Source of the DNA: Spirochaetota bacterium
GTDB taxonomy: Bacteria; Spirochaetota; UBA4802; JAFGDQ01
Assembly (NCBI GenBank): GCA_016932015.1
Contig: JAFGDQ010000019.1
Coordinates: 11,214-75,213 of the forward strand
Direction of reading: 5' to 3'
Length of the DNA stretch: 64,000 nucleotides
Shown here: piece after piece, positions 45,904 through 63,741 of the stretch
Numbering within the stretch: the first letter of the stretch is position 1
Layout of the letters: every line of letters starts with the position of its first letter
The notes under the pieces: model-generated
Seen by the model: only the letters and a program-made list of their open reading frames with translations
Databases searched by the model: none
Told to the model about the DNA's origin: nothing
Position numbers and translations under genes: made by a program

Positions 45904-45957
45904 TATTAAGCTGACCTGTAAGTAATTAAAATAAGCAGTAAAGATAAAAATAAAATT

Positions 45958-48206: not shown

Positions 48207-48489
48207 GGATAAGCCCCTTTTTAATTAATGTTTTCAGCAGTCTTTTTATTCTTTCTATGTCATAGCTGTTTTTGCAATGATGTTTAAGAAAGTATTGTTT
48301 CGAATCTATCGATCCGTTCGAATCTATCGATTCGTTCGAATCAATTGATTCGATAGTAAGGAAGCTGCCGGATTTGATAAAAGTCAGATTCGTATCTTTA
48401 CTGTTGTAAAGTAAAAGGCCGAATTTTTCCGGCCTGGCTCTCACGCCGGGTGAGAGCCGGTAAAATGTATTGCCGTCTAAAATATTCAC
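48184..48489 (-). CDS. mftB: MftB-like PqqD-family RiPP recognition element (peptide chaperone)
   Basis: 101 aa. FYRLSPGVRARPEKFGLLLYNSKDTNLTFIKS matches the MftB pattern (L.P.V.LR.E.FG.L.Y......L.F). GTG start 3 nt after the precursor stop. Confidence 0.7.
   Translation of the reverse strand: MNILDGNTFYRLSPGVRARPEKFGLLLYNSKDTNLTFIKSGSFLTIESIDSNESIDSNGSIDSKQYFLKHHCKNSYDIERIKRLLKTLIKKGLILEVRSSI
48295..48354. repeat. imperfect 18-nt tandem repeat x3 inside mftB-like gene (encodes (E/G)SIDSN x3)
   Basis: cgaatctatcgatccgtt / cgaatctatcgattcgtt / cgaatcaattgattcgat read directly. In-frame 6-aa repeats. Confidence 0.6.
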
Positions 48490-48491
48490 TT

Positions 48492-48620
48492 TTAATAAAC
48501 TCCGCAGATTCCGTCAACTGCGAGATCTTCTACCTCAATTTCTTCAAGAATATCTGTTTTTTCGTTTTTTACTTCCTCTTCATCCTTGATTTCTTTGTCT
48601 TTCATTAAAACAGTTTTCAT
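48492..48620 (-). CDS. mftA: mycofactocin-precursor-like peptide (MftA-like), 42 aa: MKTVLMKDKEIKDEEEVKNEKTDILEEIEVEDLAVDGICGVY
   Basis: Not in the ORF track (<60 aa). Found by translating the minus strand. RBS AGAGGA is 8 nt upstream of the ATG. Acidic leader. C-terminal VDGICGVY-stop matches the IDGMCGVY core of MftA. The MftB-like gene follows immediately. Confidence 0.75.
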   Translation of the reverse strand: MKTVLMKDKEIKDEEEVKNEKTDILEEIEVEDLAVDGICGVY

Positions 48621-48710: not shown

Positions 48711-49817
48711 TTAAAATTCACAAACCCAGCGTCCATGTATTTTATGTTCACGCATTGCGTCATGAACAGACTGCAGCTCTTCAAGTTTAAATTTTTTAGT
48801 GATCAGCTTATCCAGATCAATATATCTTTTATCCATAACAAGGTCGGCAAAAGCCGGGATATCGGTATGTACATGAACATGTCCGTACATTACGCCTATT
48901 ATATCTTTAGCATGGAGCGGAGTAAAAATAATCTGTAACTGAGCTTTCTTTGATGCGTCCTGAAGTCCGATTTGTATCTGCTTGCCTCCGATTCCAAGAG
49001 CCCAGTAAATCTGTTCAATCGCACCCACATCTCCGCTCGCTTCAAACGCATAATCAACTCCGCCTCCGCTCAGTTCCTGAACAATCGGTATAGGGTCCTG
49101 CTTGCTGCTGTCAATAAAATGAGTAGCTCCGAATTCCTTGGCTATGGCTTCCTTGCTGCCCTCTATGTCAACAGCTATTATCGGTTTTGCTCCTGCTAAT
49201 TTTGCTCCCTGAAGGACATTCAGCCCAATGCCGCCAATACCCCATACGGCAACACTGTCGCCGGGTTTTACATTCGCGGTGTTAATTACAGCGCCTAATC
49301 CGGTGGGAACGCAGCAGCCGAGCAATGCAGCCTGATCCAGCGGGAAATCCTCTCTTAATTTTATGGCGCCGGATTCCGGAATTACAAGATATTCGGCGAA
49401 ACCTGAAACGAATACTGAATGGTACAGTGGCTTCCCGTTAGCGTCTGTAAGTCTTGATGTGCCGTCAAGCAGTGAACCGGCTTCGATAAAATTCCGGTAT
49501 TCGGGACAGATGTATTCGTTTCCCTTTACGCATTGCTTGCATCTTCCGCATGACACAGCCCAGCAGGCTACAACATGATCTCCTTTTTTTATTCTTTTTA
49601 CACCGGGGCCTACATCGACAACAACGCCCGAGGCCTCGTGACCTGTTACGAACGGGATCGGGAATAACTGGCCACTTTCTACAGCTGAAAAATCGGAATG
49701 ACAATACCCGCAATAATGTGTTTTTACAAGAACTTCATTTTCTTTAGGCGGCGCAAGATTTACTTCCTCAATTGTAATAACTTTCGGTTCTCTGACAACC
49801 GCAGCTTTCATTTTCAT
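48711..49817 (-). CDS. zinc-dependent alcohol dehydrogenase (MDR family), candidate nicotinoprotein/mycofactocin-coupled dehydrogenase
   Basis: GYCHSD...G and GHEASGVV catalytic-Zn motifs. Structural Zn CGRCKQCVKGNEYIC. Rossmann motif VWGIGGIGL. The ATG at 49817 with RBS AGGAGG is preferred over the GTG at 49823. Confidence 0.85.
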   Translation of the reverse strand: MKMKAAVVREPKVITIEEVNLAPPKENEVLVKTHYCGYCHSDFSAVESGQLFPIPFVTGHEASGVVVDVGPGVKRIKKGDHVVACWAVSCGRCKQCVKGNEYICPEYRNFIEAGSLLDGTSRLTDANGKPLYHSVFVSGFAEYLVIPESGAIKLREDFPLDQAALLGCCVPTGLGAVINTANVKPGDSVAVWGIGGIGLNVLQGAKLAGAKPIIAVDIEGSKEAIAKEFGATHFIDSSKQDPIPIVQELSGGGVDYAFEASGDVGAIEQIYWALGIGGKQIQIGLQDASKKAQLQIIFTPLHAKDIIGVMYGHVHVHTDIPAFADLVMDKRYIDLDKLITKKFKLEELQSVHDAMREHKIHGRWVCEF

Positions 49818-49853
49818 AAACACCCTCCTGAAATCCTTATGTCAAATTTTAAT

Positions 49854-50268: not shown

Positions 50269-50281
50269 CGTAGAATTAATT

Positions 50282-50305: not shown

Positions 50306-50391
50306 TTGCCTTTTTTCTTCACGTTATTTACTTAGGGGTTTCTGCCCTGTCCATTTCCGGGTAGACTAAATTTAAAAAAAAGAATACAGCC

Positions 50392-52338
50392 ATGTCGGAT
50401 AACTTTTTGAGTCCACTGAGCATAGGCAGTATTACTCTGCCTAACCGTGTCTGTTTTCCCGCTCATAGAACAAATTTCTCCGTAAGGGGACGTTTAACCG
50501 ATCAACATATTGCCTACTATTCAAGAAGAGCCCGCGGGAAATGTGGAATGATTATTCTCGGTGAAATCTGCATTCATCCTGATGACAGACCATGGGAATC
50601 CATGATTGAAATATTTAATACTGAAGCAGTTAGGGACTTCCGCAGGATCACAGATGCAGTACATCAATACGGAACATTGATGCTGGCCCAGCTTAACCAT
50701 CACGGATTCCAGAGCAGCGGCAGCATTACAAGAAAAGCCATATGGGGTCCTTCGGCTAATGCTGATATCGTTTTCGGCGAAACATCAAAGCCGATGGAAA
50801 CAGAGGATTTTGAAACAGTAATTAAGGCTTTCTCAGACGCGGCCCTGATCGCGCGTGAAAGCGGATTTGACGGAATTGAAATAGACATCGGGCAGGAATC
50901 TCTGCTCAGACAGTTCCTTTCCCCTTTAACCAATTTCCGCCGGGATGAATACGGCGGAAGTGTTGAAAACAGAATAAAGTTTCCTCTTGATGTATTAAAA
51001 GCAGTTAGAAAAGCTATCGGCAATGATTTCACTGTAGGCGTCAGGCTGTGCGCTGATGAAAAATTCTGGGGAGCAATTACTCTTGAAGATTCAGTACAGT
51101 TTGCTGAAAGGTTTGTCAGCAACGGAAAGGCTGACTTTATTAATGTAACAGTCGGCACTTATTACAGCCTGCATATGTTTATGGCTTCAATGCATGTGCC
51201 ACCCGGGTTTGCTCTTGATGCTGCTGAAGGAATAAAAAAATCCGTAAGCGTTCCTGTAATCGCCTGCCATCAGATAACCACTCCGCAAATGGTGAATGAA
51301 ATTATTGAAAAAGAGCAGGCTGATGCAGCAGGTATGGTGCGCAGTCTCATTTGTGACCCTGATTTCACGTTAAAGGCTATGGAAGGAAGAGCTGATGATA
51401 TTCGCTACTGCGTCAGGGATAATAAAGGATGTATTGGAAGAGTCAACAATAAAAGAAAAATAGAATGCATCCAGAACCCTGAGGTGGGAAGGGAGGAATA
51501 CTATTCAAATTATCCTTTTGCTGCTGAGATAAAAAAACGTGTTATGGTTATCGGTGCCGGTCCTGCTGGAATGGAAGCGGCAATTACAGCAGCAGAGAAA
51601 GGACATGATGTTATTATTTATGAAAAAGAGGATACAGTAGGCGGACAGATAAACCTGATCAAAAAAAGGCCCAGGCGCCAGGGCATGGGCGGAGTAATAA
51701 ATTATCTGCAGAGAAATATTGAAAGACTTGAGATTCCTGTTAAGACAGGTATAGAAGTTAATTCATCGGTAGTTTCGGAGCATAACCCTGATGTTGTTAT
51801 AGTAGCGACAGGATCATTTCCCGCGGCAAAGCCTGTACCCGGAGATTATCAGGCTCCTGATGTTCTTACGGTAAATCAGGTTCTCGGCAGTGCGTTTAGC
51901 ACAGGCGAAAAGATACTTTTTATAGATGAGAACGGCAATCATCATTCGATATCAACGGTTGAGTTTCTCGCTGACCAGGGAAAGAAAGTGGATATGATCA
52001 CCAGCGATCTTTTTATCGGGGTCGAGCTTTCTCCGCTTGGCGACCTTTCCATGTCAAGACAGCGTCTGCTTCAGAGCGGAGTTACGTTTAAAACTGATCT
52101 GATGGTTGATGAAATTCAGGGGAAGCGTGTTGTCGCAAGGGATATGTACACGAACAAACCGGTAATATTCGATGATTATGATACAATCATACTTGATATG
52201 GGGAATGTTCCATGCGATGGAATTTATAAAGAGCTTAAGGGAAAAGTAAAAGAGCTTTATCGCGCCGGTGACTGTGTTGCGCCCAGGGGAATTGACATGG
52301 CAATTCTTGAAGGCCGTAAAGCAGGAGAGAGAATATGA
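50392..52338 (+). CDS. OYE-like FMN oxidoreductase fused to FAD/NAD(P)-binding domain (2,4-dienoyl-CoA reductase / enoate reductase family); Fe-S motif degenerate
   Basis: TIM-barrel OYE motifs (HRTN, GFDGIEI, R...YGGS). C-terminal GAGPAG Rossmann motif. The Cys cluster reads C-x6-C-x11-C (CVRDNKGCIGRVNNKRKIEC), so the second Cys of the usual CxxC is missing. Confidence 0.8.
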   Translation: MSDNFLSPLSIGSITLPNRVCFPAHRTNFSVRGRLTDQHIAYYSRRARGKCGMIILGEICIHPDDRPWESMIEIFNTEAVRDFRRITDAVHQYGTLMLAQLNHHGFQSSGSITRKAIWGPSANADIVFGETSKPMETEDFETVIKAFSDAALIARESGFDGIEIDIGQESLLRQFLSPLTNFRRDEYGGSVENRIKFPLDVLKAVRKAIGNDFTVGVRLCADEKFWGAITLEDSVQFAERFVSNGKADFINVTVGTYYSLHMFMASMHVPPGFALDAAEGIKKSVSVPVIACHQITTPQMVNEIIEKEQADAAGMVRSLICDPDFTLKAMEGRADDIRYCVRDNKGCIGRVNNKRKIECIQNPEVGREEYYSNYPFAAEIKKRVMVIGAGPAGMEAAITAAEKGHDVIIYEKEDTVGGQINLIKKRPRRQGMGGVINYLQRNIERLEIPVKTGIEVNSSVVSEHNPDVVIVATGSFPAAKPVPGDYQAPDVLTVNQVLGSAFSTGEKILFIDENGNHHSISTVEFLADQGKKVDMITSDLFIGVELSPLGDLSMSRQRLLQSGVTFKTDLMVDEIQGKRVVARDMYTNKPVIFDDYDTIILDMGNVPCDGIYKELKGKVKELYRAGDCVAPRGIDMAILEGRKAGERI

Positions 52339-54293
52339 GTGAGTACAAATATCTTTTTTCTCCTTTAAAGATAGGCTCAGCAGTTGTGCCGAACCGTATT
52401 CACTTTGCAGCGCATATGACAAATTTCGGGGAGGCCCAGAAAGTAAGCGAAAGGCATATTGCCTATTACAGGGAGCGCGCAAGAGGCGGTTGCGGTCTTA
52501 TCACTACTGAAGAACTTACGGTTCATCCAACAGACCATGCGTATGAAAAACTTGTGGACGCTTTTAAGCCGGAAGTAATCCCGGGATTCAGGGCGCTTAC
52601 TGATGAAATACATAAATTTGATACAAAAATTTTCGCACAGCTGAATCATAATGGTACACAGGCAGACAGCAGTATATCAAGAATTCCTTTATGGGGACCG
52701 TCCACCTGCGCCGATCCAATGTTCAGGGAAACCTGCAAGGAAATGGAGATTGAGGATATAAAGGAATGCATTGAGTATTATGCGATCAGCGCGCTACATG
52801 CTGTTGAAGGAGGGTTTGACGGTATTGAGCTGCAGTTCGGGCACAGTTCTCTTATAAGGCAGTTCCTGTCTCCTGCAACGAATTTTCGCAAGGATGAATA
52901 CGGCGGAAGTTTTGAGAACAGGCTTCGTTTTGCCGTTGAAGTAATTGAGGCTGTCAGGAAAACGGCAGGCCCTGACTTTACTCTCGGCGTGCGGCTGAAT
53001 GCTGATGAAATGCATCCCAGAGGCGGGATTACTCTGGATGATGCAAAGCTGATCGCCACAGCTTTTGAAAAAACGAATAATATTGATTTTATGGACCTGA
53101 GCCTTGGAACTTTCTATAATCTTTTTCTTGTTGAAGGCTCAATGCATACACCTCTTGCCTATACGGTCCCGCTTTCCGCGGCAATACGCTCAGCTGTTCA
53201 GGTTCCGGTTTTCTGCACAAACCGTATAAATGACCCGCATCTTGCCGAGAGTATTCTTGAAAACGGCCAGGCTGATATGATCGGAATGGTCCGCGCTCTT
53301 ATCTGCGATCCTGAACTGCCTAATAAAGCCAGGGAAGACAGAGCTGAGGATATTCGTTACTGCATAGCATGCAATCAGGGATGTATAGCGCGTATGGGGC
53401 TTGGTCATTCGCTCGGCTGTCTTCAGAATCCTGCAGTAGGGGATGAGAAAAATCTCGGAGCCGGTACACTGAAATCCTGCGAAGAACCGAAAAAAGTCGT
53501 GATAATAGGAGCAGGTCCTGCTGGTCTTGAAGCCGCGAGAACTGCTGCATTAAGAAAGCATAATGTGATTATTTTTGAAAAAAATTCCGAGCCGGGTGGA
53601 CAGAATATTACAGCAGGCAAACCAGCGGGCAGACAGGAAATAACAGGTGTTACAAGGTGGCTGCTTAGCCAGGTAAATAAACTGGATATTGATATGCGTC
53701 TCAATACAGAGGCGGACGTTGAAATGATTTTGAAAGAGAATCCTGATGCTGTTGTAATCGCGACCGGTTCTGTGCCTAAAGAGAGGCCTTTTCCAGGGGA
53801 CTATTCTTTTCCCGATGTGGTAAATACTCAGCAGATACTCAACAAGGAGGTTGAAGCAGGTGATAAGGTACTGCTTGTTGATCTTGAAGGCCATCATCAG
53901 GGGGCCGGAACTGCTGAATTTCTTGCTGATTATGGAAAACAGGTTCACATCATTACATCGTCATTATTTGCTGGTGGTGCTCTCGGGCCGCTTCAGGATC
54001 TGTTTCTTGCAAGAAAGCGCCTTGCTGCAAAAGAGATCACTTTTACTCCGGATATAGCAGTTCTTGAAATTCAGCAGAAGGTGGCCAAGGGTCTTAGCGT
54101 TTATTCAAATGAGATGATAGATTTTGATGAATTTGACACAATAGTTTTATGTGCAGGAAATGTTTCGGATGACAGACTTTACTTTGACCTTAAGGGCAGA
54201 GTTAAGGAGCTTTACAGAATCGGCGACTGTGTTGCCCCGAGAAAAACCGATATGGCCATACTGGAAGGCCACCGTATTGGAAGAATGTTATGA
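52335..54293 (+). CDS. OYE-like FMN oxidoreductase fused to FAD/NAD(P)-binding domain with intact 4Fe-4S motif (2,4-dienoyl-CoA reductase / enoate reductase family)
   Basis: Same architecture as the upstream paralog, but with a complete CIACNQGCIARMGLGHSLGC motif (C-x2-C-x3-C-x10-C). 4-nt overlap with the upstream gene. Confidence 0.8.
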   Translation: MSEYKYLFSPLKIGSAVVPNRIHFAAHMTNFGEAQKVSERHIAYYRERARGGCGLITTEELTVHPTDHAYEKLVDAFKPEVIPGFRALTDEIHKFDTKIFAQLNHNGTQADSSISRIPLWGPSTCADPMFRETCKEMEIEDIKECIEYYAISALHAVEGGFDGIELQFGHSSLIRQFLSPATNFRKDEYGGSFENRLRFAVEVIEAVRKTAGPDFTLGVRLNADEMHPRGGITLDDAKLIATAFEKTNNIDFMDLSLGTFYNLFLVEGSMHTPLAYTVPLSAAIRSAVQVPVFCTNRINDPHLAESILENGQADMIGMVRALICDPELPNKAREDRAEDIRYCIACNQGCIARMGLGHSLGCLQNPAVGDEKNLGAGTLKSCEEPKKVVIIGAGPAGLEAARTAALRKHNVIIFEKNSEPGGQNITAGKPAGRQEITGVTRWLLSQVNKLDIDMRLNTEADVEMILKENPDAVVIATGSVPKERPFPGDYSFPDVVNTQQILNKEVEAGDKVLLVDLEGHHQGAGTAEFLADYGKQVHIITSSLFAGGALGPLQDLFLARKRLAAKEITFTPDIAVLEIQQKVAKGLSVYSNEMIDFDEFDTIVLCAGNVSDDRLYFDLKGRVKELYRIGDCVAPRKTDMAILEGHRIGRML

Positions 54294-55324
54294 GTTCAGA
54301 TAAAATGAACATATGGATTCTTGTAAACCACAGGCAGGGTACTGTTGAAAAGGAGACTTACGGACTTGCTGCCGAGGCACAGAGGCTGTTAACAATGTCG
54401 AAACAGAATTCCGAAGAATATTGTTCCGATGGCAAAATTACAGCTGTAGCGCTTGGAGCAGGGCTTGATGCTGAACTTAAACAGCTGGGTGCATACGGAA
54501 TTAACAGTGTTGTTTATGCTGAAGGGCAGGAGCTGGCAAGATATAACGGGGAATTATTTGCAGAAGTCCTTCTGAAACTGTATGAAAAATATAAGCCTGC
54601 CTGCATACTAATGGATCATAATACGGAAACATCGGATCTTGCACCCAGGCTTGCTTCATTGATGAATACATCCATCGTTACAAGAGTTATAGATTTTACT
54701 ATCAGCATTAACCGGGAAATTGCAGCTACCCGGCCTGTAAGCAGCGGGTATCTGTTTGAAAAATTTAAACTGGAGCGCACATCCTGTCCGGTTATCACAT
54801 TATTACCAAATGTATTAAATGAAACTGAAGCCGCAGAAAACCGGAATATTGAAATCATAAATGAGAAAATAGATCCCGGCACTTTTAATTTAAAAACAAA
54901 GGTTACAGAAATAATGGAAGCTGCACCGGAGGATCTTGAAATTGATGAAGCCGAAATAGTTATTTCAGGTGGCCGGGGTGTAGGCAAAGAGGAGTCTTTA
55001 GATATTATTACCAGGCTGGCAAAGTCTTTGAAAGGCTCTGTCGGAGGAACAAGGCCGATTATTGACTGGCAGCTGCTTCCTTTTGAGCGTCAGATCGGGC
55101 AGACTGGAAAGGTGATATCCCCCAGGCTTTTATTCGCGTGCGGTATTTCAGGAGCAAATGAATATACTACAGGCATGGAAAAATCCCGCCTTGTCGTCGC
55201 AATAAATACTGATCCCGGAGCCCGCATATTCAAGTTTGCTGATTTGTCTGTTATAGGTGATGTACACGAAGTATTACCCCGGGTGATAGAAAAAATAGAG
55301 GAAAGGGGGATATGGAATTTATAA
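54290..55324 (+). CDS. etfA: electron transfer flavoprotein alpha subunit (EtfA-like)
   Basis: FAD-binding C-terminal domain motifs (VISGGRGVG, IAINTDPGARIF). Confidence 0.8.
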   Translation: MSSDKMNIWILVNHRQGTVEKETYGLAAEAQRLLTMSKQNSEEYCSDGKITAVALGAGLDAELKQLGAYGINSVVYAEGQELARYNGELFAEVLLKLYEKYKPACILMDHNTETSDLAPRLASLMNTSIVTRVIDFTISINREIAATRPVSSGYLFEKFKLERTSCPVITLLPNVLNETEAAENRNIEIINEKIDPGTFNLKTKVTEIMEAAPEDLEIDEAEIVISGGRGVGKEESLDIITRLAKSLKGSVGGTRPIIDWQLLPFERQIGQTGKVISPRLLFACGISGANEYTTGMEKSRLVVAINTDPGARIFKFADLSVIGDVHEVLPRVIEKIEERGIWNL

Positions 55325-55933
55325 ATGAAATTAAGTAATTTAATATTCTTTACTTTGTTTTTGCTTTTACCATTGGCTGTTCAGGCTTCTTATTTTCCTG
55401 AGGACTGCATTGCATGCCATGCGGCAAAAGATGGCGACAGCAGTCTTCAGATTCCTTTACAGGAATTTAACGAATCAGCTCACGGCAGAAATGTGACATG
55501 CACAGATTGCCATAATAGTGTTTTGAATGAAGAGCACATGACTGACGGAGCACATGCTGTTGACTGCAGTCAATGTCATCCCGTGGAATCCGGAGCAACG
55601 GATTATTTTTCTTTTCTTCCTTCTCTGCGTGTTAAATGGCATTTAAAAGGAGACTTTAGCGGAAATTACAACAAAAAAAACTGTATCGGATGCCATCAGG
55701 GTAAAGCTTCTCACGGTAAGGAAGGGGCTGTAGATAAACAGAACTGCTATGTATGCCATATGAAAATAAAAGATAATTCAGTAATCGCGAATATTCATCC
55801 TGTAGCAGATCAGAAAAAACAGCCGCTGATTTTTGCATCAGCTGTTATTTATCAGATATTGATTGTTGTTATATTATTAAGTTTAACAGGTTTTATTTTT
55901 AAAAAGATACTCGGGGAAAAAAAGGGTAAGTAA
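55325..55933 (+). CDS. pentahaem c-type cytochrome with C-terminal membrane anchor
   Basis: Signal peptide. Five CxxCH motifs (CIACH, CTDCH, CSQCH, CIGCH, CYVCH). C-terminal hydrophobic helix. Confidence 0.8.
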   Translation: MKLSNLIFFTLFLLLPLAVQASYFPEDCIACHAAKDGDSSLQIPLQEFNESAHGRNVTCTDCHNSVLNEEHMTDGAHAVDCSQCHPVESGATDYFSFLPSLRVKWHLKGDFSGNYNKKNCIGCHQGKASHGKEGAVDKQNCYVCHMKIKDNSVIANIHPVADQKKQPLIFASAVIYQILIVVILLSLTGFIFKKILGEKKGK

Positions 55934-55935
55934 AA

Positions 55936-57837
55936 TTGTTATCCTCATTTGATATTCTATTAACAGTAATCGCTTTATTTATAATGCTTGCAGGTATTTT
56001 CAGGCACAGGTCTGTCTGGAAAGCAGGCAGGGAGGAGTCCCGTTCAGGAAGTTGGGCAGGTCTTATAAAATATATTTTCGAGCATGGTAAGATACTGAAA
56101 AAAAGGGGCAGGGGGATAGCACATTTTTTTGTGTTTTACGGATTTTTTCTTCCCTTGGTTGTTATAATACTGGCACAGTTTAATTTCGAGATTGGCATTA
56201 TTCCTTCAGGAATTGTCTCTCTGCTGCTGGACATCATTGGGACTTTATTCCTGACAGGAATTGTCATTCTTTTAATAAGACGTATTGTTTCTCAGGATTC
56301 AGAGGGTCCGTTAAGGACAATTTTCCCGATGATTATATTGTGCGTTATAATAATAACCGGCTTTCTTGCTGAAGGAGCCCGGCTCGGCATTTCAGGAACA
56401 GAAACAGTATGGGCATCACCTGTGGGCTGGATTTTTTCCGTATTTGTCCCTGCTTCGCCATCCTTTATGCAGATAATAATACGCGTACATTTCTATGCTG
56501 TTTTACTGTTTTTAGCGCTGCTGCCGTTTAATTTTGCAAAACATATTATTGCCTCTTCGCTTAATGTTTATTTTAAAAGAAAAAATCCGCGCGGTGAATT
56601 AAATAAAGCTTATTTAACAGACGATTCCGCAGGAGCGGCTATTGTCAGAGATTTTACATGGAAACAGCTGCTTGATGCAGAGGCTTGCGTGTCATGCGGA
56701 AGATGTGAAGAAAATTGTCCCGCATTTATTTCAGGAAAGCCGTTGTCTCCAAGGAAGATCATCAGAGATATATACAATCTGATGTATCTTTCAAACGGTG
56801 AAAAAATATCATCAAATATGCTGGAGAGTACAATCAGCAATGACGAGATCTGGTCATGCACAGCATGCATGGCCTGTGTAGAGCACTGCCCTGTATACGC
56901 GGAGCCGATGGACAAGATCATTGACATGCGCCGCCATCAGGTTATGTGCAAAGGGCAGCTTCCTGCTGAAGCAGTACCCATGATACGCAATCTTGAGATA
57001 TTCGGCGATGTACAGGGCAAAGGCGCTGCTCACAGAATGGACTGGGCCATGAGTCCTGATCTTGAATTTGCTAATGCTGAAAATGCTGATGCTGATATTC
57101 TGTTATGGCCGGGATGTTCGGGCGCGTTTCATCCGAGATATCAGGAAGTGCTGAAAGCTATGGTAAAGATACTGAACACAGCACGAATCAGGTTCAGCAC
57201 ATTAGGCAAAGATGAATTATGTTGTGGAGATCCTGCAAGACGCCTTGGAAATGAAAGTCTTTTTCTCGAACTGGCCGGGAAAAATATCAGCAGTTTCAGG
57301 AAGAACAATATTAAAAAGATTCTTACTCTTTGCCCGCATTGTTTTAATACTTTAAAGAATGAATATCCTGGAGTTGAAAAAGAATTATTTAATAAATCAA
57401 AAGAAAATATTGAAGTTGTGCATGCTTCTGAATATATAATGGAATTGATTAAAGTAAAACGTATAGTCCCGAAATATCCGCTAAAGAAAAATATTGCTTT
57501 TCAGGACCCGTGTTATCTGGGGCGGGTAAATGGAATTTATAATGAACCGAGAGAAGTAATTTCAAGCATACCGGGAACCGCCTTAAAAGAACTTGATCAC
57601 AACAGGGAAACCGGATTCTGCTGCGGAGGCGGCGGAGGCGGAATGTGGATGCACGAGCATTCCGGTAAACGAATGAACGTTATAAGGGCGGAGGAAGTTG
57701 CAGAAGCTGACCCTGAGGTTTTGTGTACAGCGTGTCCGTATTGTCTGACAATGCTTGAAGACGGGCTTAGTTCTCTGGAGTCGGAAAAAGAGACGAAGGT
57801 GCTTGATATTGTTGAGATTATTGCAGGGGCGATATGA
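55936..57837 (+). CDS. membrane-bound HdrD/DsrK-like iron-sulfur oxidoreductase (N-terminal 5-6 TM domain + 2x[4Fe-4S] + two CCG domains)
   Basis: TTG start after RBS AAGGGTAAG. Ferredoxin motifs CVSCGRCEENCP and CTACMACVEHCP. CCG-domain cysteines (CPGCSG...CCGDP; CPHC...CCGGGGGG...CTACPYC). Resembles fused HdrE/DsrM-HdrD/DsrK modules. Confidence 0.75.
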   Translation: MLSSFDILLTVIALFIMLAGIFRHRSVWKAGREESRSGSWAGLIKYIFEHGKILKKRGRGIAHFFVFYGFFLPLVVIILAQFNFEIGIIPSGIVSLLLDIIGTLFLTGIVILLIRRIVSQDSEGPLRTIFPMIILCVIIITGFLAEGARLGISGTETVWASPVGWIFSVFVPASPSFMQIIIRVHFYAVLLFLALLPFNFAKHIIASSLNVYFKRKNPRGELNKAYLTDDSAGAAIVRDFTWKQLLDAEACVSCGRCEENCPAFISGKPLSPRKIIRDIYNLMYLSNGEKISSNMLESTISNDEIWSCTACMACVEHCPVYAEPMDKIIDMRRHQVMCKGQLPAEAVPMIRNLEIFGDVQGKGAAHRMDWAMSPDLEFANAENADADILLWPGCSGAFHPRYQEVLKAMVKILNTARIRFSTLGKDELCCGDPARRLGNESLFLELAGKNISSFRKNNIKKILTLCPHCFNTLKNEYPGVEKELFNKSKENIEVVHASEYIMELIKVKRIVPKYPLKKNIAFQDPCYLGRVNGIYNEPREVISSIPGTALKELDHNRETGFCCGGGGGGMWMHEHSGKRMNVIRAEEVAEADPEVLCTACPYCLTMLEDGLSSLESEKETKVLDIVEIIAGAI

Positions 57838-57871
57838 CCCCTATCCCCTCGCCATGCTACATATAGCGTTT

Positions 57872-57914
57872 CTCCTTTCCCCTTGGCAAAGGGAAAGGGT
57901 AGAAGCTTGTTTTT
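57872..57914 (+). terminator. GC-rich hairpin (CCTTTCCCCTT/AAGGGAAAGGG) followed by T-run; putative terminator after the HdrD-like gene
   Basis: Read directly. A second similar hairpin (57963-57985) and a GGCCgaaGGCC hairpin (57987-57997) follow. Confidence 0.3.
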
Positions 57915-58332
57915 ATCTGGTGTCAAATGTAATTATAGGATATTTTTTAAATATATTTTTCCTTCCCCTTTTCAAGGAGAAGGTGGCCGAAGGCCGGAAG
58001 GGGTTGAGTCAGCAAACAATGTCCAAAATATTCAATAGACACTCTGAACTTGAAAAACGAAGAATTTTAAGAGCAAAGCAGACAAATGCGGGAAAATTAA
58101 TCTGGAATAAGTAAAGAAGACGAAGCATAAACGGATACAAATTCAGAAGACAATACAGCATAGGCCCTTACATTGCCGACTTCTATTGTCCGGAAGTAAA
58201 GCTTACAATAGGAGTAGATGGCAGTGTGCATGATTCAATAGGGATAAATATACCGCGATTTAAAAATAATGAAATAGAAAACAACATTGATGCTGTTATA
58301 GATAAGATAGAAAAGCAGTTAGAGAGGCTTTC

Positions 58333-59190
58333 ATGAAAATAATTGTTTGCGTAAAGCAGATATATCATACATACGCAAGAACCGGCACTGACCCGGATAA
58401 GATGTTTATTGCGCCTGAGGACACAGTCGCAAGAATCAATCCTTATGATGAAGCAGCACTTGAAACTGCTCTGTGTTTTAAAGATTTAGATCCGGAAACT
58501 GAAATTACACTTTTAACACTTGGTCCTCTTATTGCAGAAAGTGGGCTTAGAAGATGCCTTGCAATGGGCGCTGATAACCTTGTTCAAATAGATGCAGAAA
58601 GACAGTTGGATTCAAAAAATAAGTCTGAATACATGGCAAAAGCTGTAGAGGAGATCGGAGCTGATATTGTTTTATGCGGGAAAGAGTCTCTTGATACGCA
58701 GAACGGACAGGTGGGAGCTTTTCTTGCCCGTATTCTGAATGTTCCATTTGTTTCAGTAGTGCTTGAATTCAGGTTGAAAAGCAATAATATAGAAGTTATA
58801 AGATCAGCCGGACGCGGTGTGCGTGAAAGAATTGAGTGTCCGGTTCCTGTTGTTTTAAGCGTGGACATGGGGCAGAAAGAACCGCGACTGCCCACATATA
58901 TGTCTAAAAAGAAAGCTGAGTTTTTCCAGATACAAACGTTATCATATTATGATAGTGAAATGAATAAGCAAAAAGTATCCCATGATGTTTTTCCTCCAAG
59001 GCCAAGGCCGAAAAAAGCAGCTGCTCCTGACAGTTCACTTGATCCGTATAACCGTATTGATTTTCTATTAACAGGAACCAGGGTTGAGAAAAAAGGAGCA
59101 GTACTCAGAGGTGATGCTGAAGTTCTGGCTGACGGCATTGTTTCTTTTCTTGATGAGCATGGATTCCTGAATGCGGAAAAGGCTGAATAG
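58333..59190 (+). CDS. etfB: electron transfer flavoprotein beta subunit (EtfB-like)
   Basis: MKIIVCVKQ... N-terminus and overall EtfB pattern. Confidence 0.8.
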   Translation: MKIIVCVKQIYHTYARTGTDPDKMFIAPEDTVARINPYDEAALETALCFKDLDPETEITLLTLGPLIAESGLRRCLAMGADNLVQIDAERQLDSKNKSEYMAKAVEEIGADIVLCGKESLDTQNGQVGAFLARILNVPFVSVVLEFRLKSNNIEVIRSAGRGVRERIECPVPVVLSVDMGQKEPRLPTYMSKKKAEFFQIQTLSYYDSEMNKQKVSHDVFPPRPRPKKAAAPDSSLDPYNRIDFLLTGTRVEKKGAVLRGDAEVLADGIVSFLDEHGFLNAEKAE

Positions 59191-59205
59191 ATAAATGTTT
59201 CTGAT

Positions 59206-60303
59206 ATGAGTGTGCCAATTTCATCAGCAGAACTTCTTAACAAGATTAGAGAAGCAGGTCTCGAAGCTCCGGAAACATTAACTTTAATGATAACCGGGAA
59301 ATGTAATTTAACCTGTCTTCATTGCCTTCTGAACTGCAGAGAAAATAATTCTTCACCTGTACCTGCCGATGTTGTAAAAAGAATGATAAAGGAATTTTTG
59401 GATATTTCAGGAAAATCAATATGGTTTACAGGCGGTGAACCGCTTACGCGGTCTGACTGGTTTGAGATTCTTGAATTTGCTATGCAGTACGAATTTGAAG
59501 AAGTAGGCCTGCAGACCAATGCTATGCTTATGACTGAAGAGGACCTTCACAGACTGCAGACATTGCCTTTGAATAAGCTGAGTCTGCAGATAAGCCTGGA
59601 CGGTGTTTCTGCAATAACGCATAATGCGCTGAGAGGTGAAGGCAGCTTCGATATTGTAATGAAGGTGCTGAAAATGCTTTCATCTACTGATCTTGCCTGT
59701 AGAACTGCAGTCGCTTTTACTGAGATGCGTCACAATTATCATGAACTTCCTGATGCTGTTTATCTGGTAAACAATTTAGGGCTGTCCCGCCTTGTAAGCG
59801 GTACAGTCGTGAGATCAGGCAAATGTACACAGTACGGCTGGATAGAACTTCCTGCTGCACCGCAGGTCAATGATCTGCTTGATAAATACAATAATGATAC
59901 ATCTTTTCATGATGCATATGAGCAGTCAGGAAATATTTCAGCAATAGAATGGTTTAAGGGAAAGGACAGGAAGACTGACAAACTCTGCACCTGCATGAGT
60001 ACTCCGTTTATAAATTCAGAAGGTGAATTGTTTCCCTGTATAATGTATCTCGACAAATCATTTGCAGAAGGAAACATTCATGAGATTTCACTTGCTGAGG
60101 CAATACTTAACGGGCTTTCAAAATGGAAAGAACTCCCGCTGACAGCTGATAGGCGAAGTAATCTTCCTGAATGCAGGGAATGCCCCGGGCATGACCATTG
60201 CAAGGGAGGCTGTGTCGGGAGAGCTGCTGTTGTTAACGGAACTCCGATGTCTGTCGAAGACCGCTGCGCTTTAAGAAAAATTGTTTATAACTGGAAAGAT
60301 TAA
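59206..60303 (+). CDS. radical SAM / SPASM-domain protein (third in window)
   Basis: CxxxCxxC (CNLTCLHC), GGEP. SPASM cysteines (CTCMS...GELFPC...CRECPGHDHCKGGC). Confidence 0.8.
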   Translation: MSVPISSAELLNKIREAGLEAPETLTLMITGKCNLTCLHCLLNCRENNSSPVPADVVKRMIKEFLDISGKSIWFTGGEPLTRSDWFEILEFAMQYEFEEVGLQTNAMLMTEEDLHRLQTLPLNKLSLQISLDGVSAITHNALRGEGSFDIVMKVLKMLSSTDLACRTAVAFTEMRHNYHELPDAVYLVNNLGLSRLVSGTVVRSGKCTQYGWIELPAAPQVNDLLDKYNNDTSFHDAYEQSGNISAIEWFKGKDRKTDKLCTCMSTPFINSEGELFPCIMYLDKSFAEGNIHEISLAEAILNGLSKWKELPLTADRRSNLPECRECPGHDHCKGGCVGRAAVVNGTPMSVEDRCALRKIVYNWKD

Positions 60304-60457
60304 GAGCATTTATAAAACAGGAAATCATGTCATTTATACCTCTTTTTTTTCACAGGAAATTTTTTAAAAAAGATAAAACACTCTTTACAATATAATTATT
60401 ATATTCATTTAAAGAAAATAATTTGATATATACAGATGTTTGAAGAGGATTTTAATA

Positions 60458-60739
60458 ATGTTTAAAACCAGAATTCATATATACGGCCTTCCAAAGGATA
60501 TTTCAGATTTACGTGAGATTGAAGTTGAACTTAATGATGGTGCGGGAATGAATGAAGTCGTAAGTGCGATGAGAGAAAAGATCCCGGCACTCGAAGGGTC
60601 TGTAATCCTGGAAGGTGAGAACAGGCTGGCCGAATATTACAAATTCAACATAAACGGCCATTTTTATTTCGACGGAATGGAATTTGAGTTGAATGAAGGT
60701 GACCGGATCGCGCTTCTTATGCCTATGCCGGGAGGTTAG
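60458..60739 (+). CDS. MoaD/ThiS-like ubiquitin-fold protein ending in Gly-Gly
   Basis: 93 aa from the ATG at 60458 (RBS AGAGGA). The track ORF uses an upstream TTG. C-terminus ...ELNEGDRIALLMPMPGG-stop is comparable to the MoaD ...DGDEVAFFPPVTGG-stop. No cysteines. Confidence 0.45.
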   Translation: MFKTRIHIYGLPKDISDLREIEVELNDGAGMNEVVSAMREKIPALEGSVILEGENRLAEYYKFNINGHFYFDGMEFELNEGDRIALLMPMPGG

Positions 60740-60774
60740 TCCTTTAATTCTGATAAATAATAAGAGGTAATGTT

Positions 60775-61539
60775 ATGGGAGTGATGGACAATAAAGTATG
60801 TATTATTACAGGAGGCGCGGGTAGCATTGGGGTTGCAAGTGCAGGGCTTCTCTTAAAAGAAGGCGCAAGGGTTATGCTGGTTGATAATAGCCGGGATAAT
60901 TTAAATAAAGCTGCTGATGATCTTAAGGAATATGGCGATTCAGTCGCGTCAGTAAAAGCTGATGTATCAGATACGGAACAGACAATCGGCTACATAAATC
61001 AAACGGTTGAAAAGTGGGAAAAGATAGATGTTCTTTTCAGCAATGCCGGAATTCATGGTGCCAATAAGCCGGTAACGGAATTTCCGGAAGATGTATTTGA
61101 CGAAGTAATTAAAGTAAATGTCAGGTCTTCATTTCTCGCCTGCAAATACGGCATTCCTCAGATGCATGACGGAGGCAGCATTATTATAACTTCAAGCATT
61201 GTCGGTGTAAAGGGAGCTCCCGGAGTTATTGCCTATACAACTTCAAAACATGCGCTTGTAGGACTAATGCGCAGTGTTGCACTGGAGGTCACATCAAGAA
61301 ATATCCGTGTTAATCTATTATGCCCGGGCCCGGTTAACAATAGCTTTCAGGCGGATGTTGAAACTGATGCGGGCAGGGAAACGGGTACTGATGCAACAGC
61401 AATGTTTAATTCCATGATCCCGTTAAAGCGTCATGCAAGGCCTGAAGAAATAGCAGGCACTGTGCTTTTTCTTGCATCTGATCAGAGCAGTTTTTCAACG
61501 GGAAGCATTTTTATGGCTGACGGAGGACTTAATGCCTGA
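60775..61539 (+). CDS. short-chain dehydrogenase/reductase (SDR)
   Basis: TGGAGSIG cofactor motif, NAG, catalytic S...YxxxK (YTTSKHA). Confidence 0.85.
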   Translation: MGVMDNKVCIITGGAGSIGVASAGLLLKEGARVMLVDNSRDNLNKAADDLKEYGDSVASVKADVSDTEQTIGYINQTVEKWEKIDVLFSNAGIHGANKPVTEFPEDVFDEVIKVNVRSSFLACKYGIPQMHDGGSIIITSSIVGVKGAPGVIAYTTSKHALVGLMRSVALEVTSRNIRVNLLCPGPVNNSFQADVETDAGRETGTDATAMFNSMIPLKRHARPEEIAGTVLFLASDQSSFSTGSIFMADGGLNA

Positions 61540-61554
61540 GGTGTTGTTTTTAAT

Positions 61555-62115
61555 ATGATCAGGGATTTTCTGGAAAAACGGGCCGGCACATGGCATGAAC
61601 ATAATATTCCTGAATATGACGGGAAAATATTATATGATATTATTGTTGAGAATAATTACACGCGTATTCTGGAAATAGGTACGTCCAGCGGGCATTCCGG
61701 AATATGGATGGCATGGGCGCTCAGCAAAACGAACGGCAGGTTAATTACCATTGAAATCAACGAAGGACGCTATCAGAAAGCTGTCTCAAATTTTAGGGAA
61801 GCAGGAGTTTCGGATATTATTGATGCAATATCCGGGAATGCCCATAATATTCTGGATGAACTTGAAGGCCCGTTTGATTTGATTTTCTGTGATGCGGATA
61901 AAGATTTTTATAAACAGTATTTCACTGATCTTTATCCCAGACTTGTAAAAGGAGGATGTTATACTGCGCATAATGTTTACGATACATCCCCAAAAAGGCA
62001 GTTTAAAAGCAACGGTATTACGGAATTTTATCAATATGTAAAGAGTCTTGACTATATGGAAACGACTCTTGACGAAAGCGCAGGCGGCCTTTCCATAAGC
62101 TATAAGAAATACTAA
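61555..62115 (+). CDS. class I SAM-dependent O-methyltransferase (catechol/caffeoyl-CoA OMT-like, family 3)
   Basis: ILEIGTSSG motif I and overall YrrM/OMT-3 pattern. Confidence 0.7.
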   Translation: MIRDFLEKRAGTWHEHNIPEYDGKILYDIIVENNYTRILEIGTSSGHSGIWMAWALSKTNGRLITIEINEGRYQKAVSNFREAGVSDIIDAISGNAHNILDELEGPFDLIFCDADKDFYKQYFTDLYPRLVKGGCYTAHNVYDTSPKRQFKSNGITEFYQYVKSLDYMETTLDESAGGLSISYKKY

Positions 62116-62208
62116 TACTCTGTTTCAGGGATCTGATTATTTTAGCTATGATGTTTCCATAAAAATCAGTCAAAATGAGTAATTTGATAAAAAAGCTATG
62201 CAGGATTT

Positions 62209-63741
62209 TTAATAATATTTTTTGAAATCAATTCCGAGTTTTTTTATTTTATAATTCAGAATTCTTTTAGTCGTACCAAGAAGATTTGCCGCTTTTGAAA
62301 TATTCCCTTTTGTCAGCTTCAGATGGTCAATAATAATTTCCTTAACGAACATGTCAGTCATTTCCTCAAGATTCCCGGACATTCCGTTTTTTTCCGGTTC
62401 TTCTGCTATTTGAAGTGATGGTGGAAGGTGATAGCTTCTGATTACATCACCGTCAGCAAGGATCACTGCCCGCTCGATTGAGTTTTCCAGCTCTCTTACA
62501 TTTCCGGGCCAGTGATAACTCATCAGCATATCTATTGCTTCACTGCTGATTCTTTTTACATCCTTTCCTATCTTTTGGGAATATTTTTCAAGAAAGTAGT
62601 CAGATAAAAGCATGATATCGGTTTTTCGCTCTCTTAACGGAGGGGCATAAATAGGAAAAACATTCAGCCTGTAATACAGGTCAGCTCTGAATTCATTATT
62701 CCGGATTTTTTCTTCAAGATTCTGATGAGTTGCAGCAAGAATTCTTACGTTTAAAGGGATTGTTTTATTGCCGCCAACCCTTTCGATTGTTTTTTCCTGA
62801 ATGACCCGCAGCAGATGAACCTGCAGTTGGGGATTAAGGTCACCGATTTCATCAAGGAAAATAGTGCCTTCATTGGCAAGTTCAAATTTGCCTTTTTTTT
62901 GGGATACCGCGCCTGTAAAAGATCCCTTTTCATGTCCGAAAAGTTCGCTTTCAATTAAGCTTTGTGATAATGCTGCAATATTTACTCTTATAAACGATTT
63001 ATCTTTTCTTTTGCTGTTATAATGAATAGCTTCGGCAATCAGTTCCTTTCCTGTTCCGCTTTCACCTGTAATCAGTACTGTTGAGTCCGTTTCCGCAACC
63101 AGTATTACTTTTTCATTGATAGCTCTGATTATATGGGAATTGCCGATCATGGATCCGGGAGATTTGCCGGCATTAAGTTTTATTTTAAGTAATTTATTCT
63201 CTTCGCGCAGATGATTCTCTGTCTGCAGCATTTCTCTTCTGTTATTGACAGCATGTGCCACCATAACAGAAACCATGGACAGCATTTCAACTTCTTCCTT
63301 AAAAGAGTCATTTTTGTCTTTAACCAGATCTATTGAAATTGTGCCCAGGGTTTCACCGGATATTTTTACAGGTACACAAATGAAAGCAATGTTATGACCC
63401 GGATCAAGCATTCTGGCTCCTGTGCGGTTCAGAAATTTCGGTTCTTCAAAAATAGACGGCACAATTACTGGTTCGCCGCTTGATATTACAGAACCTATTA
63501 TTCCCTCTCCTGATTTATATATGCCTTTTACGATCTGATCTTTGGAATAGCCGTATGAAACATCTATGTGGATCTCGTCGGATTCTTCGATATAAATATT
63601 AATCATGCCCCTTTCTACGGGGAAATATTTGGCAAGAAGTTCAAGAACAGTTTTTAAAAGAATGTTCATGTCCTTGATTGAAAAGAAAAGCTTCCCAATT
63701 TCACCTATAAGCTCGGTATGTTTGCTGTTTGTAATTTTCAT
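62209..63741 (-). CDS. sigma-54-dependent transcriptional activator with N-terminal GAF domain (NifA/AcoR-like)
   Basis: GAF region, AAA+ sigma-54 interaction domain ([29 protein letters not shown]), C-terminal Fis-type HTH. Confidence 0.9.

Follow-up and report, generated by a model that had tools for sequence, protein, structure and literature searches.

How can mycofactocin be made without MftD, and how can the reduced cofactor be recycled in an anaerobe? The biology of mycofactocin has been worked out almost entirely in mycobacteria, in which MftD finishes the redox centre and MftG passes the electrons to respiration. A stretch of 64,000 nucleotides (nt) from the metagenome-assembled genome (MAG) of a Spirochaetota bacterium (contig JAFGDQ010000019.1, positions 11,214 to 75,213; here called the window and numbered from its first letter) offers a testable answer to both questions. 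Beside a mycofactocin (mft) operon, it carries a six-gene core at 50392-59190, in the order OYEa-OYEb-EtfA-cytochrome c-FeS-EtfB, which codes for two flavoenzymes of the FadH/OYE family, the two subunits of an electron transfer flavoprotein (ETF), a pentahaem cytochrome c, and a membrane iron-sulfur (Fe-S) protein, here called FeS. Most likely, these six genes connect mycofactocin to the respiratory membrane, and we give an even chance to the fuller reading, that 50392-59190 codes for a dehydrogenase-to-membrane electron chain dedicated to mycofactocin.

The conservation of this arrangement was followed from the FeS protein, which has thousands of homologs, by scanning one genome per species, which gave 80 loci (the FeS-first sample), and by mapping the window proteins on them with tblastn. 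Five neighbourhoods whose FeS protein is 52-62% identical to that of the window all have the order OYE-OYE-EtfA-cytochrome-FeS-EtfB, with mft genes beside or around it. Within the FeS-first sample, the split order EtfA-Cyt-FeS-EtfB occurs in 66 loci, both OYEa and OYEb are present in 46 of the 47 loci with sufficient upstream flank, and at least one mft gene lies in 50 of the 54 with sufficient flank. The usual order is mftA-mftB-mftC-OYEa-OYEb-etfA-cyt-FeS-etfB-(rSAM3)-mftF-rSAM2, often with a Zn-dependent alcohol dehydrogenase ahead, so that in most loci the six genes are inside the mft operon, between mftC and mftF. Among the hosts are Desulfobacterales, Desulfatiglandales, Syntrophobacterales, Desulfomonilaceae, and Desulfarculaceae; they include Desulfonema limicola, Desulfosarcina variabilis, and a second Spirochaetia MAG. 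FeS homologs of 37% identity or less are found in clusters of the classical EtfB-EtfA-FeS order, from which OYE and mft genes are missing. The arrangement recurs in dozens of independent genomes and is far beyond chance. Co-occurrence with mft genes in other genomes had been set beforehand as a test of the claim that the core of the island is functionally tied to them, and the synteny supports that claim; the module is very probably dedicated to the mycofactocin system.

The contrary explanation would be a generic redox unit of catabolism that lies beside the mft operon by accident. It can call on the divergent orientation of the two units in the window, which are not co-transcribed, on four loci in which no mft gene could be reached from the six genes, and on the mosaic look of the locus, as MftC and the six-gene module have different closest relatives: the identity of the window MftC is 55-70% to its counterparts in the metagenome loci that match it best, among them several with a FixC/FixX (FixCX) module, and 46-54% to those of Desulfobacterota clusters with the same cytochrome/EtfD-type module. 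Against this stand the linked loci just given, mostly with the module inside the operon, the score of OYEb above the cut-off of a curated mycofactocin-system model, and the homologous modules in mft clusters of Actinomycetota and Halobacteria. Synteny refutes this explanation as far as synteny can refute, and we consider it extremely improbable.

The minus-strand operon that faces the core, called mycofactocin-like in the initial annotation, is a true mft system: MftA ends in GVY, a C-terminal motif that recurs in related loci, and MftB, MftC, and MftF exceed the curated cut-offs of their NCBIfam models (Table 1). Its alcohol dehydrogenase, homologs of which precede mftA in many related loci, has the NDMA-dependent alcohol dehydrogenase model TIGR03989 as best NCBIfam match (302 bits, under the cut-off of 440). 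The FMN_dh, creatininase, and GMC domains of MftD, MftE, and MftG were not found by domain scans anywhere in the 64-kb window, and tblastn with MftD, MftE, and MftG gave no homolog in 2.1 Mb of sequence made up of the window and 165 loci.

We can therefore define two types of cluster, type I with mftD and mftG and no module, and type II with the module and neither gene. Plasmid clusters of Tsukamurella and Streptomyces sp. NBC_00080, and a disrupted one in M. chubuense, are of type I. The initial annotation took the re-oxidation of reduced mycofactocin to be unresolved, which does not hold for mycobacteria, in which MftG oxidises mycofactocinol and passes the electrons to the respiratory chain (eLife 2025, PMC11778925), and does hold for organisms without MftG, such as Desulfonema limicola, which has the module. 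The mftG gene is missing in about a quarter of the genomes with mftC (311 vs 235; PMC11778925), and those listed as having MftC and no MftG include Desulfonema limicola, Geotalea uraniireducens, Geobacter pickeringii, Desulfofarcimen acetoxidans, Saccharopolyspora spp., S. yangpuensis, Haloterrigena, Halolamina, and Frankia (PMC11778925). The full module is present in Desulfonema limicola, S. yangpuensis, Haloterrigena, and Halolamina, while in Saccharopolyspora the documented part is the TIGR03997 OYE gene. As mftD is absent wherever the module is present, and mftG was found in no module-bearing cluster or listed genome, the simplest reading would be that the module replaces both. Since mftD is excluded at least as strictly as mftG, a role in the maturation of the cofactor competes with one in its recycling.

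That the chain reaches the quinone pool is suggested by a second sample, taken from MftC in a metagenome scan (45 MftC-first loci). An OYE_2 gene directly follows mftC in 24 of these 45 loci, and homologs of FixC and FixX are present in 22 of them and in 0 FeS-first loci; in every locus inspected closely (L097 and L101), the FixC-like and FixX-like genes lie between etfA and etfB. Plasmids of Streptomyces sp. NBC_00334 and S. yangpuensis (RefSeq) have the order mftA-mftB-mftC-OYE_1-OYE_2-mft_etfA-FAD oxidoreductase-4Fe4S protein-mft_etfB-(SDR)-mftF-mftE, where SDR stands for short-chain dehydrogenase/reductase, and Haloterrigena turkmenica and Halolamina have an analogous gene set. Two unrelated ETF:quinone oxidoreductases alternate in one operon slot, and at the level of sequence nothing argues more strongly for an ETF that communicates with the quinone pool.

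The occupant of this slot in the window, FeS, has five hydrophobic helices followed by two ferredoxin-type [4Fe-4S] and two CCG domains, and shows full-length-range homology to the EtfD of M. smegmatis (PDB 9OJN, E=5.7e-96). EtfD, whose structure was solved by cryo-EM, combines five transmembrane (TM) helices with two [4Fe-4S] and two CCG domains, holds a b haem, has a site for menaquinone, and links ETF to it (PMC13083937); its counterpart in Syntrophus, EMO, is an ETF:methylmenaquinone oxidoreductase of the di-haem/Fe-S kind and can run either way (PMC8805022). In FeS, His63, His185, and His203 are invariant in 25/25 sequences and His50 is kept in 22/25; these four His, located in TM2 and TM5 and with an NarI-like spacing of 18 residues in TM5, are the predicted b haem ligands of the membrane domain. 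The FeS gene adjoins etfA and etfB in all loci. The label of HdrD/DsrMK-like protein given to FeS in the initial annotation is better replaced by that of an EtfD/EMO-like protein, as the curated models score far under their cut-offs (DsrK 61/400, TmcB 77/735, HmcF 55/750, TfrB 171/385) and only CCG and Fer4 match. The route that it had drawn from Etf through the membrane Fe-S protein to quinone is sustained by the EtfD homology and by FixC/FixX in the same slot, and we think it quite probable that the module ends in an ETF:quinone oxidoreductase.

The cytochrome that accompanies FeS is the membrane-anchored pentahaem protein that had been proposed. It contains five CxxCH motifs, and its hydrophobic segments, at residues 1-25 and 165-198, correspond to a signal peptide and a C-terminal TM helix. 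It has weak c3/c7/NrfH matches in Pfam and NCBIfam (NrfH, 27 bits vs a cut-off of 134), and its orthologs carry seven haems (n=54) or, as in the window, five (n=8). In three relatives (P0020, P0029, and P0113), a multihaem cytochrome c is joined to the N-terminus of the EtfD-like Fe-S protein in natural fusions of 806-852 amino acids (aa), with seven CxxCH in P0020 and five in P0113, which argues that cytochrome and FeS belong to a single complex whose haems c face the periplasm. A heptahaem cytochrome c also accompanies generic EtfB-EtfA-FeS genes in loci without OYE or mft genes (L070, L072, L075, L076, L082, L084, and L066), placed after them or, in a Gemmatimonadota genome, before them, so the pairing of cytochrome and EMO-like protein is wider than the mft clusters.

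The nearest solved ETFs (4kpu, 6fah, 5ol2, 7koe, and 7qh2) are of the bifurcating type, with 5ol2, 7koe, and 6fah nearest to EtfA, and the chains 4kpu_B and 6fah_B to EtfB. One could thus propose a two-FAD ETF of the FixAB/Bcd-Etf type that bifurcates or confurcates electrons, coupling NADH or mycofactocinol both to quinone, through the EtfD-like protein or FixCX, and, by way of the Fe-S/FAD arm of the OYE pair, to an acceptor of low potential. The FixC and FixX of the sister modules, as partners of the bifurcating FixAB, and the low potential at which OYE enzymes like 2-naphthoyl-CoA reductase (NCR) operate would fit this proposal. PDB proximity is a heuristic, though, and the window EtfB has DTQNGQVG aligned with the DGDTAQVG stretch of 4kpu_B and 6fah_B, a departure from the bifurcating sequence in what we take to be the second-FAD/AMP site; presumably, DTQNGQVG is also unlike the canonical AMP-site sequence. 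As the cluster has no ferredoxin or flavodoxin partner either, bifurcation seems very unlikely to us.

The OYE pair is the best-conserved part of the module. OYEb, which GenBank already names "mycofactocin system FadH/OYE family oxidoreductase 2," reaches 872 bits against TIGR03997 (cut-off, 793.15), and its best 120 homologs, nearly all of 652 aa and all of the Desulfobacterota type, are 74-85% identical; across orders, identity falls from 74-85% for OYEb to 46-54% for MftC and 34-41% for MftF. OYEa, with 771 bits against TIGR03997, is just below that cut-off, and reaches 373 bits against TIGR03996 (FadH/OYE oxidoreductase 1; cut-off, 627.9). The active-site motif is G-Q-x-S in OYEa orthologs and in the OYE_1 of Streptomyces, and G/S-H-S-S in OYE_2-type proteins; judged by this motif and by its upstream position, OYEa is analogous to OYE_1 and not a curated TIGR03996 member. 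OYEb keeps the CxxCxxxCx11C cluster motif and the FAD-binding GxGxxG of the first dinucleotide fold, while the GxGxxG of the FadH NADPH site is absent in 51/52 and 50/50 OYE orthologs, as it is in trimethylamine dehydrogenase (TMADH). In OYEa, the cluster motif is CxxDxxxCx11C (CVRDNKGC in the window), and 49/50 orthologs have Asp where the second Cys of the motif would be, which points to a conserved non-standard Fe-S site. The same Asp is seen in the single OYE_2 of one FixCX-type cluster (L097, 11073-13031).

The best PDB matches of OYEb are NCR (6qkg), FadH (1ps9), and TMADH (1djn, 225 bits), together with histamine dehydrogenase. TMADH donates its electrons to ETF, so there is family precedent for ETF donation; on this ground, on its conservation, and on its lack of a pyridine-nucleotide site, the OYE pair is likely, with somewhat better than even chances, the enzyme that acts on the cofactor. 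The initial annotation had named the two OYE-like enzymes, both of which are present, and had given them no role, even though they are the part of the island under the strongest conservation.

Putting these components together, we can propose the following path. A heteromeric OYEa/OYEb pair, carrying FMN, an Fe-S cluster, and an FAD/ADP domain and with no NAD(P)H site, would oxidise C3, the redox carbon of the pyrrolidinone core of mycofactocin, taking mycofactocinol at each turnover, and may also oxidise the amine precursor AHDP once, in maturation. The electrons would move from FMN to the Fe-S cluster and on to the dedicated ETF, in the manner of TMADH, and from there through the CCG clusters, two [4Fe-4S] clusters, and b haems of the EtfD/EMO-type membrane protein to menaquinone; the pentahaem cytochrome c anchored next to this protein may give them a second outlet, to the cytochrome pool of the periplasm. 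The module would in this way stand in for MftD, the pre-mycofactocin synthase, and MftG, the mycofactocin dehydrogenase. With a midpoint potential of about -255 mV for premycofactocin, a value cited in PMC8406134, transfer to menaquinone would be exergonic.

The same parts could also run inward. Menaquinol or periplasmic cytochromes, fed by the oxidation of H2 or formate, would then deliver electrons through the cytochrome and the EtfD-like protein to the ETF, and the OYE pair would be a terminal reductase of mycofactocinone or of an enoate-, dienoyl-, or aryl-CoA-type substrate. EMO-type enzymes do run both ways in syntrophs (PMC8805022), the first two PDB matches of OYEb are the reductase NCR and FadH, and a Tmc-like layout, seen here in the partial NCBIfam matches to TmcB, HmcF, and DsrK, is typical of inward conduits in sulfate reducers. 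However, an mft-unrelated reductase leaves unexplained why, in bacteria and archaea alike, the module lies inside mft clusters between mftC and mftF, and why it excludes mftD and mftG. Aerobic Streptomyces and haloarchaea carry the homologous FixCX module, and the usual neighbours are alcohol dehydrogenases, which are producers of the reduced cofactor. We therefore regard inward flow as quite unlikely.

A more serious competitor accepts the outward direction and restricts the module to maturation: the OYE pair, the ETF, and the ETF:quinone oxidoreductase would replace MftD, whose oxidative chemistry uses oxygen, by a route without oxygen that deaminates AHDP to premycofactocin with the electrons going to quinone, and they would have no role in cofactor turnover. 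The module does occupy the mftD position, after mftC and before mftF/mftE, never together with mftD, and the closest characterised relatives of its OYE enzymes include the amine dehydrogenases TMADH and histamine dehydrogenase. Seventeen Saccharopolyspora clusters lack mftD and have a TIGR03997 gene "with unknown function" (BGCFlow, PMC11162802), and S. erythraea makes methylmycofactocin despite missing mftD (PMC11162802, PMC9679996). The strict exclusion of mftD, Saccharopolyspora, and Thermomicrobium roseum, which has mftD, no mftG, and no local module, all argue for a maturation role. On the other side, a chain of six proteins on the scale of a respiratory one, multihaem cytochrome included, is excessive for a step needed once per molecule, OYEb is far more conserved than the biosynthetic enzymes, and the residues with which TMADH oxidises amines are not retained; genomes with the module are also devoid of MftG and would have to re-oxidise the cofactor by some other route, and clusters with neither mftD nor the module exist. 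We consider maturation as the only role unlikely. The size of the chain and its multihaem cytochrome argue for a catabolic flux, that is, for the recycling proposed in the initial annotation, of which the chain to the membrane is backed by homology and the exclusive assignment to re-oxidation is contested by maturation. The sequence data do not tell recycling from maturation.

Several observations weigh against the proposed path. In OYEb, Met takes the place of the Cys30 that binds FMN covalently in TMADH, and Glu that of Tyr60 in the aromatic bowl. Both ETF subunits score below the cut-offs of the curated mycofactocin models (EtfA, mft_etfA NF038209, 129 bits vs a cut-off of 240; EtfB, mft_etfB TIGR04503, 88 bits vs 200), and they are no closer to FixAB-type mft ETFs (28-30% identity) than to generic EMO-linked ETFs (31-35%), for which reason ETF similarity was discarded as proof of descent from the former. 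The loci without a reachable mft gene are L011, L028, L031, and L056, and some mft clusters (the L146 type) have none of mftD, mftE, mftG, and the module within 10 kb. The pattern of T. roseum fits a pure MftD substitute better than recycling. The absence of mftE together with one or two extra radical SAM enzymes suggests that the cofactor may differ from mycobacterial mycofactocin. Finally, we infer what the OYE pair acts on, which way the electrons flow, and what the cytochrome does.

A tentative extension, which we hold to be possible and less probable than not by a clear distance, is that in Desulfobacterota and some spirochaetes the six genes code for one supercomplex, made of an OYE_1/OYE_2 heterodimer, the ETF, the EtfD-like di-haem Fe-S protein, and the cytochrome c with five to seven haems, that would be both an anaerobic pre-mycofactocin synthase and a mycofactocinol:menaquinone/cytochrome c oxidoreductase, replacing MftD and MftG. 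If true, such a supercomplex would be a previously unrecognised respiratory entry point, feeding the electrons of nicotinoprotein alcohol dehydrogenases across the membrane to the transport network of sulfate and metal reducers.

The genes of the island and of its neighbours are collected in Table 1. All ten components named in the initial annotation are present, on the plus strand and within the coordinates it gave; the co-directional gene content stands, and the count of twelve has to be lowered to 10 intact genes in 50392-62115 and one pseudogene, from the listing of open reading frames (ORFs) and the Pfam/NCBIfam scans. The distance of about 570 nt to the divergent ADH-mft operon was measured as 568 nt between the start codon of the alcohol dehydrogenase (ADH) and the start of the island, and the GAF sigma-54 activator does bound the far side. 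The junctions among the first five genes of the core measure -4, -4, 0, and +2 nt, which suggests translational coupling. The 495-nt gap ahead of etfB holds the remains of a DUF559 gene, which is interrupted by an in-frame stop and has lost ~25 aa internally, and two short hairpins also lie between the FeS gene and etfB (57838-58332). An intact DUF559 gene is found in the closest related operon (L001, 8779-9129), at the junction of etfA and the cytochrome gene instead, so repeated insertion of this small gene is suggested. The ORF at 57755-58114 was rejected as a gene, as it has no family match, overlaps the FeS gene by 83 nt, and is part of the decayed DUF559 gene; none of the small ORFs between rSAM3 and the MoaD-like gene was convincing. 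An Rfam scan of 44000-64000 gave no structured RNA at E<=0.1. The G+C content of the island (0.40-0.46) is slightly above that of most of the window (mostly 0.32-0.40).

Table 1. Genes of the redox island, its bounding regulator, and the facing mft operon, in window coordinates
Feature	Coordinates	Strand	Evidence
OYEa, FadH/OYE-family FMN-[Fe-S]-FAD flavoenzyme, OYE_1 type	50392..52338	+	Oxidored_FMN 209 bits, Pyr_redox_2
OYEb, mycofactocin system FadH/OYE family oxidoreductase 2	52335..54293	+	Oxidored_FMN 220 bits; TIGR03997
EtfA, large ETF subunit, FAD-binding	54290..55324	+	Pfam ETF_alpha 100 bits, ETF 82 bits
Predicted periplasmic pentahaem cytochrome c, 202 aa	55325..55933	+	5 CxxCH, signal peptide, C-terminal TM anchor
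FeS, putative EtfD/EMO-type membrane ETF:(mena)quinone oxidoreductase, 633 aa	55936..57837	+	CCG x2, Fer4, weak Nitrate_red_gam (Pfam)
Decayed DUF559-family pseudogene and short hairpins, not machinery	57838..58332	+	Frame translation vs intact DUF559 of L001
EtfB, small ETF subunit	58333..59190	+	Pfam ETF 91 bits
rSAM3, third radical SAM/SPASM enzyme, MftC paralog	59206..60303	+	Radical_SAM and SPASM (Pfam)
ThiS/MoaD-fold protein ending GG	60440..60739	+	Pfam ThiS 25 bits
Classical SDR	60775..61539	+	adh_short_C2 208 bits
Class I SAM-dependent O-methyltransferase (Methyltransf_3)	61555..62115	+	Pfam 73 bits
GAF-AAA+ sigma-54 activator, NifA-like	62209..63741	-	Sigma54_activat 236 bits, GAF, HTH_8
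Zn-dependent alcohol dehydrogenase, first gene of divergent mft operon	48711..49823	-	ADH_N and ADH_zinc_N
mftA precursor peptide, 42 aa, ...VDGICGVY	48492..48620	-	ORF translation
mftB chaperone	48184..48489	-	TIGR03967 52 bits vs cut-off 33
mftC radical SAM maturase	47154..48206	-	TIGR03962 340 bits vs cut-off 265
rSAM2, radical SAM/SPASM protein, between mftC and mftF	45958..47094	-	Radical_SAM and SPASM
mftF glycosyltransferase	44452..45903	-	TIGR03965 348 bits vs cut-off 280

The two extra radical SAM enzymes are recurrent accessories. The rSAM3 protein, noted in the initial annotation as a third radical SAM/SPASM enzyme, has MftC as its best NCBIfam match (121 bits vs a cut-off of 265), and its homologs adjoin etfB or mftF in 25 loci. 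The rSAM2 protein belongs to no curated family (best NCBIfam match, 53 bits); its homologs, of 45-55% identity, adjoin mftF in 33 loci and are constant in anaerobe-type mft clusters, which lack mftE. The last three genes of the island, which had been counted in the set, are not conserved partners: tblastn found no homolog of the MoaD-like protein or of the O-methyltransferase in 85 related loci, and homologs of the SDR are sporadic and weak, so these genes are outside the conserved unit. The MoaD-like protein ends in PGG and scores above the cut-off of ThiS (25 vs 22.5) and below those of TIGR01687 (37.5 vs 49.5) and SAMP1 (36.9 vs 60); the window shows neither an E1-like nor a MoeB-like partner. 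The idea that the SDR is a mycofactocin-dependent enzyme was not upheld, as it fails the mycofactocin-coupled models (TIGR03971, 170 bits vs a cut-off of 300).

Regarding regulation, sigma-54 activators are found near mft clusters in about 9 loci, and the GAF activator is a possible regulator of the island. No -24/-12 site (TGGCAC-N5-TTGC, <=2 mismatches) is present in 49824-50391, and sigma-54 control by the adjacent activator was set aside as evidence, the window-wide matches being 40 against 39.9 expected by chance. A sigma-70-like site lies upstream of the island, at 50242-50271.

Around anaerobe-type mft clusters, genes for aldehyde:ferredoxin oxidoreductase (AOR) and Fe- or Zn-type alcohol dehydrogenases recur (L004, 19744-21816; L005, 539-2383; L097, 18099-19811; L146, 15392-17185), which is consistent with an alcohol-to-acid pathway around the cofactor. 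Clusters of the L146 type (8236-17185; also L144, L150, and L159) combine a mycofactocin-coupled SDR (NF040490, 543 bits in L146) with mftA, mftC, and mftF; in L146, the locus whose downstream genes were inspected, these are followed by larE-larB-larC (nickel-pincer cofactor genes) and an AOR-like gene, and a sigma-54 activator lies ~8 kb upstream. Elsewhere in the window, we found a single-chain pyruvate:ferredoxin oxidoreductase (4454-7999), an aldo/keto reductase fused to a 4Fe-4S dicluster domain (23537-24775), a DUF3450-ExbB-ExbB-ExbD-TonB-TPR gene cluster (25428-30271), and two large ORFs of 724 and 1035 aa with no Pfam match (16897-19071 and 32279-35386).

The initial annotation did not recognise the island as a described operon. 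This has to be corrected for part of it, as NCBIfam already holds models tied to mycofactocin for OYE_1/2 (TIGR03996/TIGR03997) and for ETF alpha and beta (NF038209/TIGR04503), and it stands for the version with cytochrome c and the EtfD-like protein. The literature searched had no paper that combined mycofactocin with electron transfer flavoprotein or gave a function to the module genes, and it mentioned TIGR03997 only in the BGCFlow paper; nor did it describe the Desulfobacterota/spirochaete variant in which a cytochrome c and an EtfD/EMO-type complex replace FixCX, a split into type I and type II involving both mftD and mftG, or the Cys-to-Asp change of the OYE_1 type. The link of OYE_2 and ETF to mycofactocin is thus known to database curators and was partly seen in one paper, and the cytochrome c and EtfD-like variant appears to be new. 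Clusters without mftD and mftG form a large and phylogenetically wide group, with Actinomycetota, Halobacteria, Desulfobacterota, and the Spirochaetes MAG, and have in their place OYE-type flavoenzymes, a dedicated ETF, and an ETF:quinone oxidoreductase. Provided that its cytochrome works, the module of the window would give alcohol oxidation a direct link to the cytochrome network found in sulfate and metal reducers. For enzymology, the two radical SAM families (rSAM2 and rSAM3) and the conserved Cys-to-Asp change at the Fe-S site are flagged as targets.

Compared with known systems, the OYE pair shares with TMADH and histamine dehydrogenase the superfamily, the FMN TIM barrel, the CxxCxxxCx11C motif (in OYEb), the ADP/FAD-type domain without an NAD(P)H site, the His of the "xHS" motif, retained in OYEb, and an ETF as genomic partner. 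It differs from TMADH in lacking the Cys for 6-S-cysteinyl FMN and the aromatic substrate bowl, and, unlike the TMADH homodimer, it consists of two paralogous subunits, with Asp replacing one cluster Cys in OYEa. The membrane end resembles EtfD (Rv0338c; 9OJN) and the EMO of Syntrophus aciditrophicus in its five TM helices with b haem ligands, two [4Fe-4S] and two CCG domains, and adjacent ETF genes. Unlike in these systems, FeS is paired, and in some relatives fused, with a cytochrome c of five to seven haems, lies between etfA and etfB, and would be fed by OYE-type enzymes and not by acyl-CoA dehydrogenases; it also lacks the long disordered C-terminus of EtfD (633 vs 1042 aa). With Tmc, Hmc, and DsrMKJOP, the module has in common a Tmc-like layout of periplasmic multihaem cytochrome, NarI-like b-type membrane domain, and cytoplasmic CCG Fe-S protein, with all subunit-specific NCBIfam models far under their cut-offs in the window. 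As in FixABCX, an ETF and an ETF:quinone oxidoreductase are in one operon, here without FixC and FixX.

MftG and MftD would share the proposed tasks of the module, that is, the oxidation of mycofactocinol with electrons to respiration and the oxidation of AHDP to the keto form, and their genomic distribution is complementary to that of the module. We infer this equivalence across unrelated folds and cofactors, as MftG is a GMC FAD enzyme and MftD an alpha-hydroxyacid-oxidase-type FMN enzyme, whereas the module combines OYE/FadH enzymes, an ETF, and a membrane complex. The closest system is formed by the type II clusters of Streptomyces, Saccharopolyspora, and haloarchaea, with the NCBIfam families TIGR03996/TIGR03997 and NF038209/TIGR04503, which share with the module the order mftABC, OYE_1-type, OYE_2-type, etfA, ETF:quinone oxidoreductase, etfB, and mftF and the lack of mftD and mftG; of the four families, TIGR03997 is passed by OYEb. 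In the window, a multihaem cytochrome c and an EtfD/EMO-type protein replace FixC/FixX, the ETF is under the mft_etf cut-offs, mftE is absent, and one or two radical SAM genes are added; the hosts of this version are anaerobic (Desulfobacterota and the Spirochaetes MAG), and the module of the window is a separate, divergent unit.

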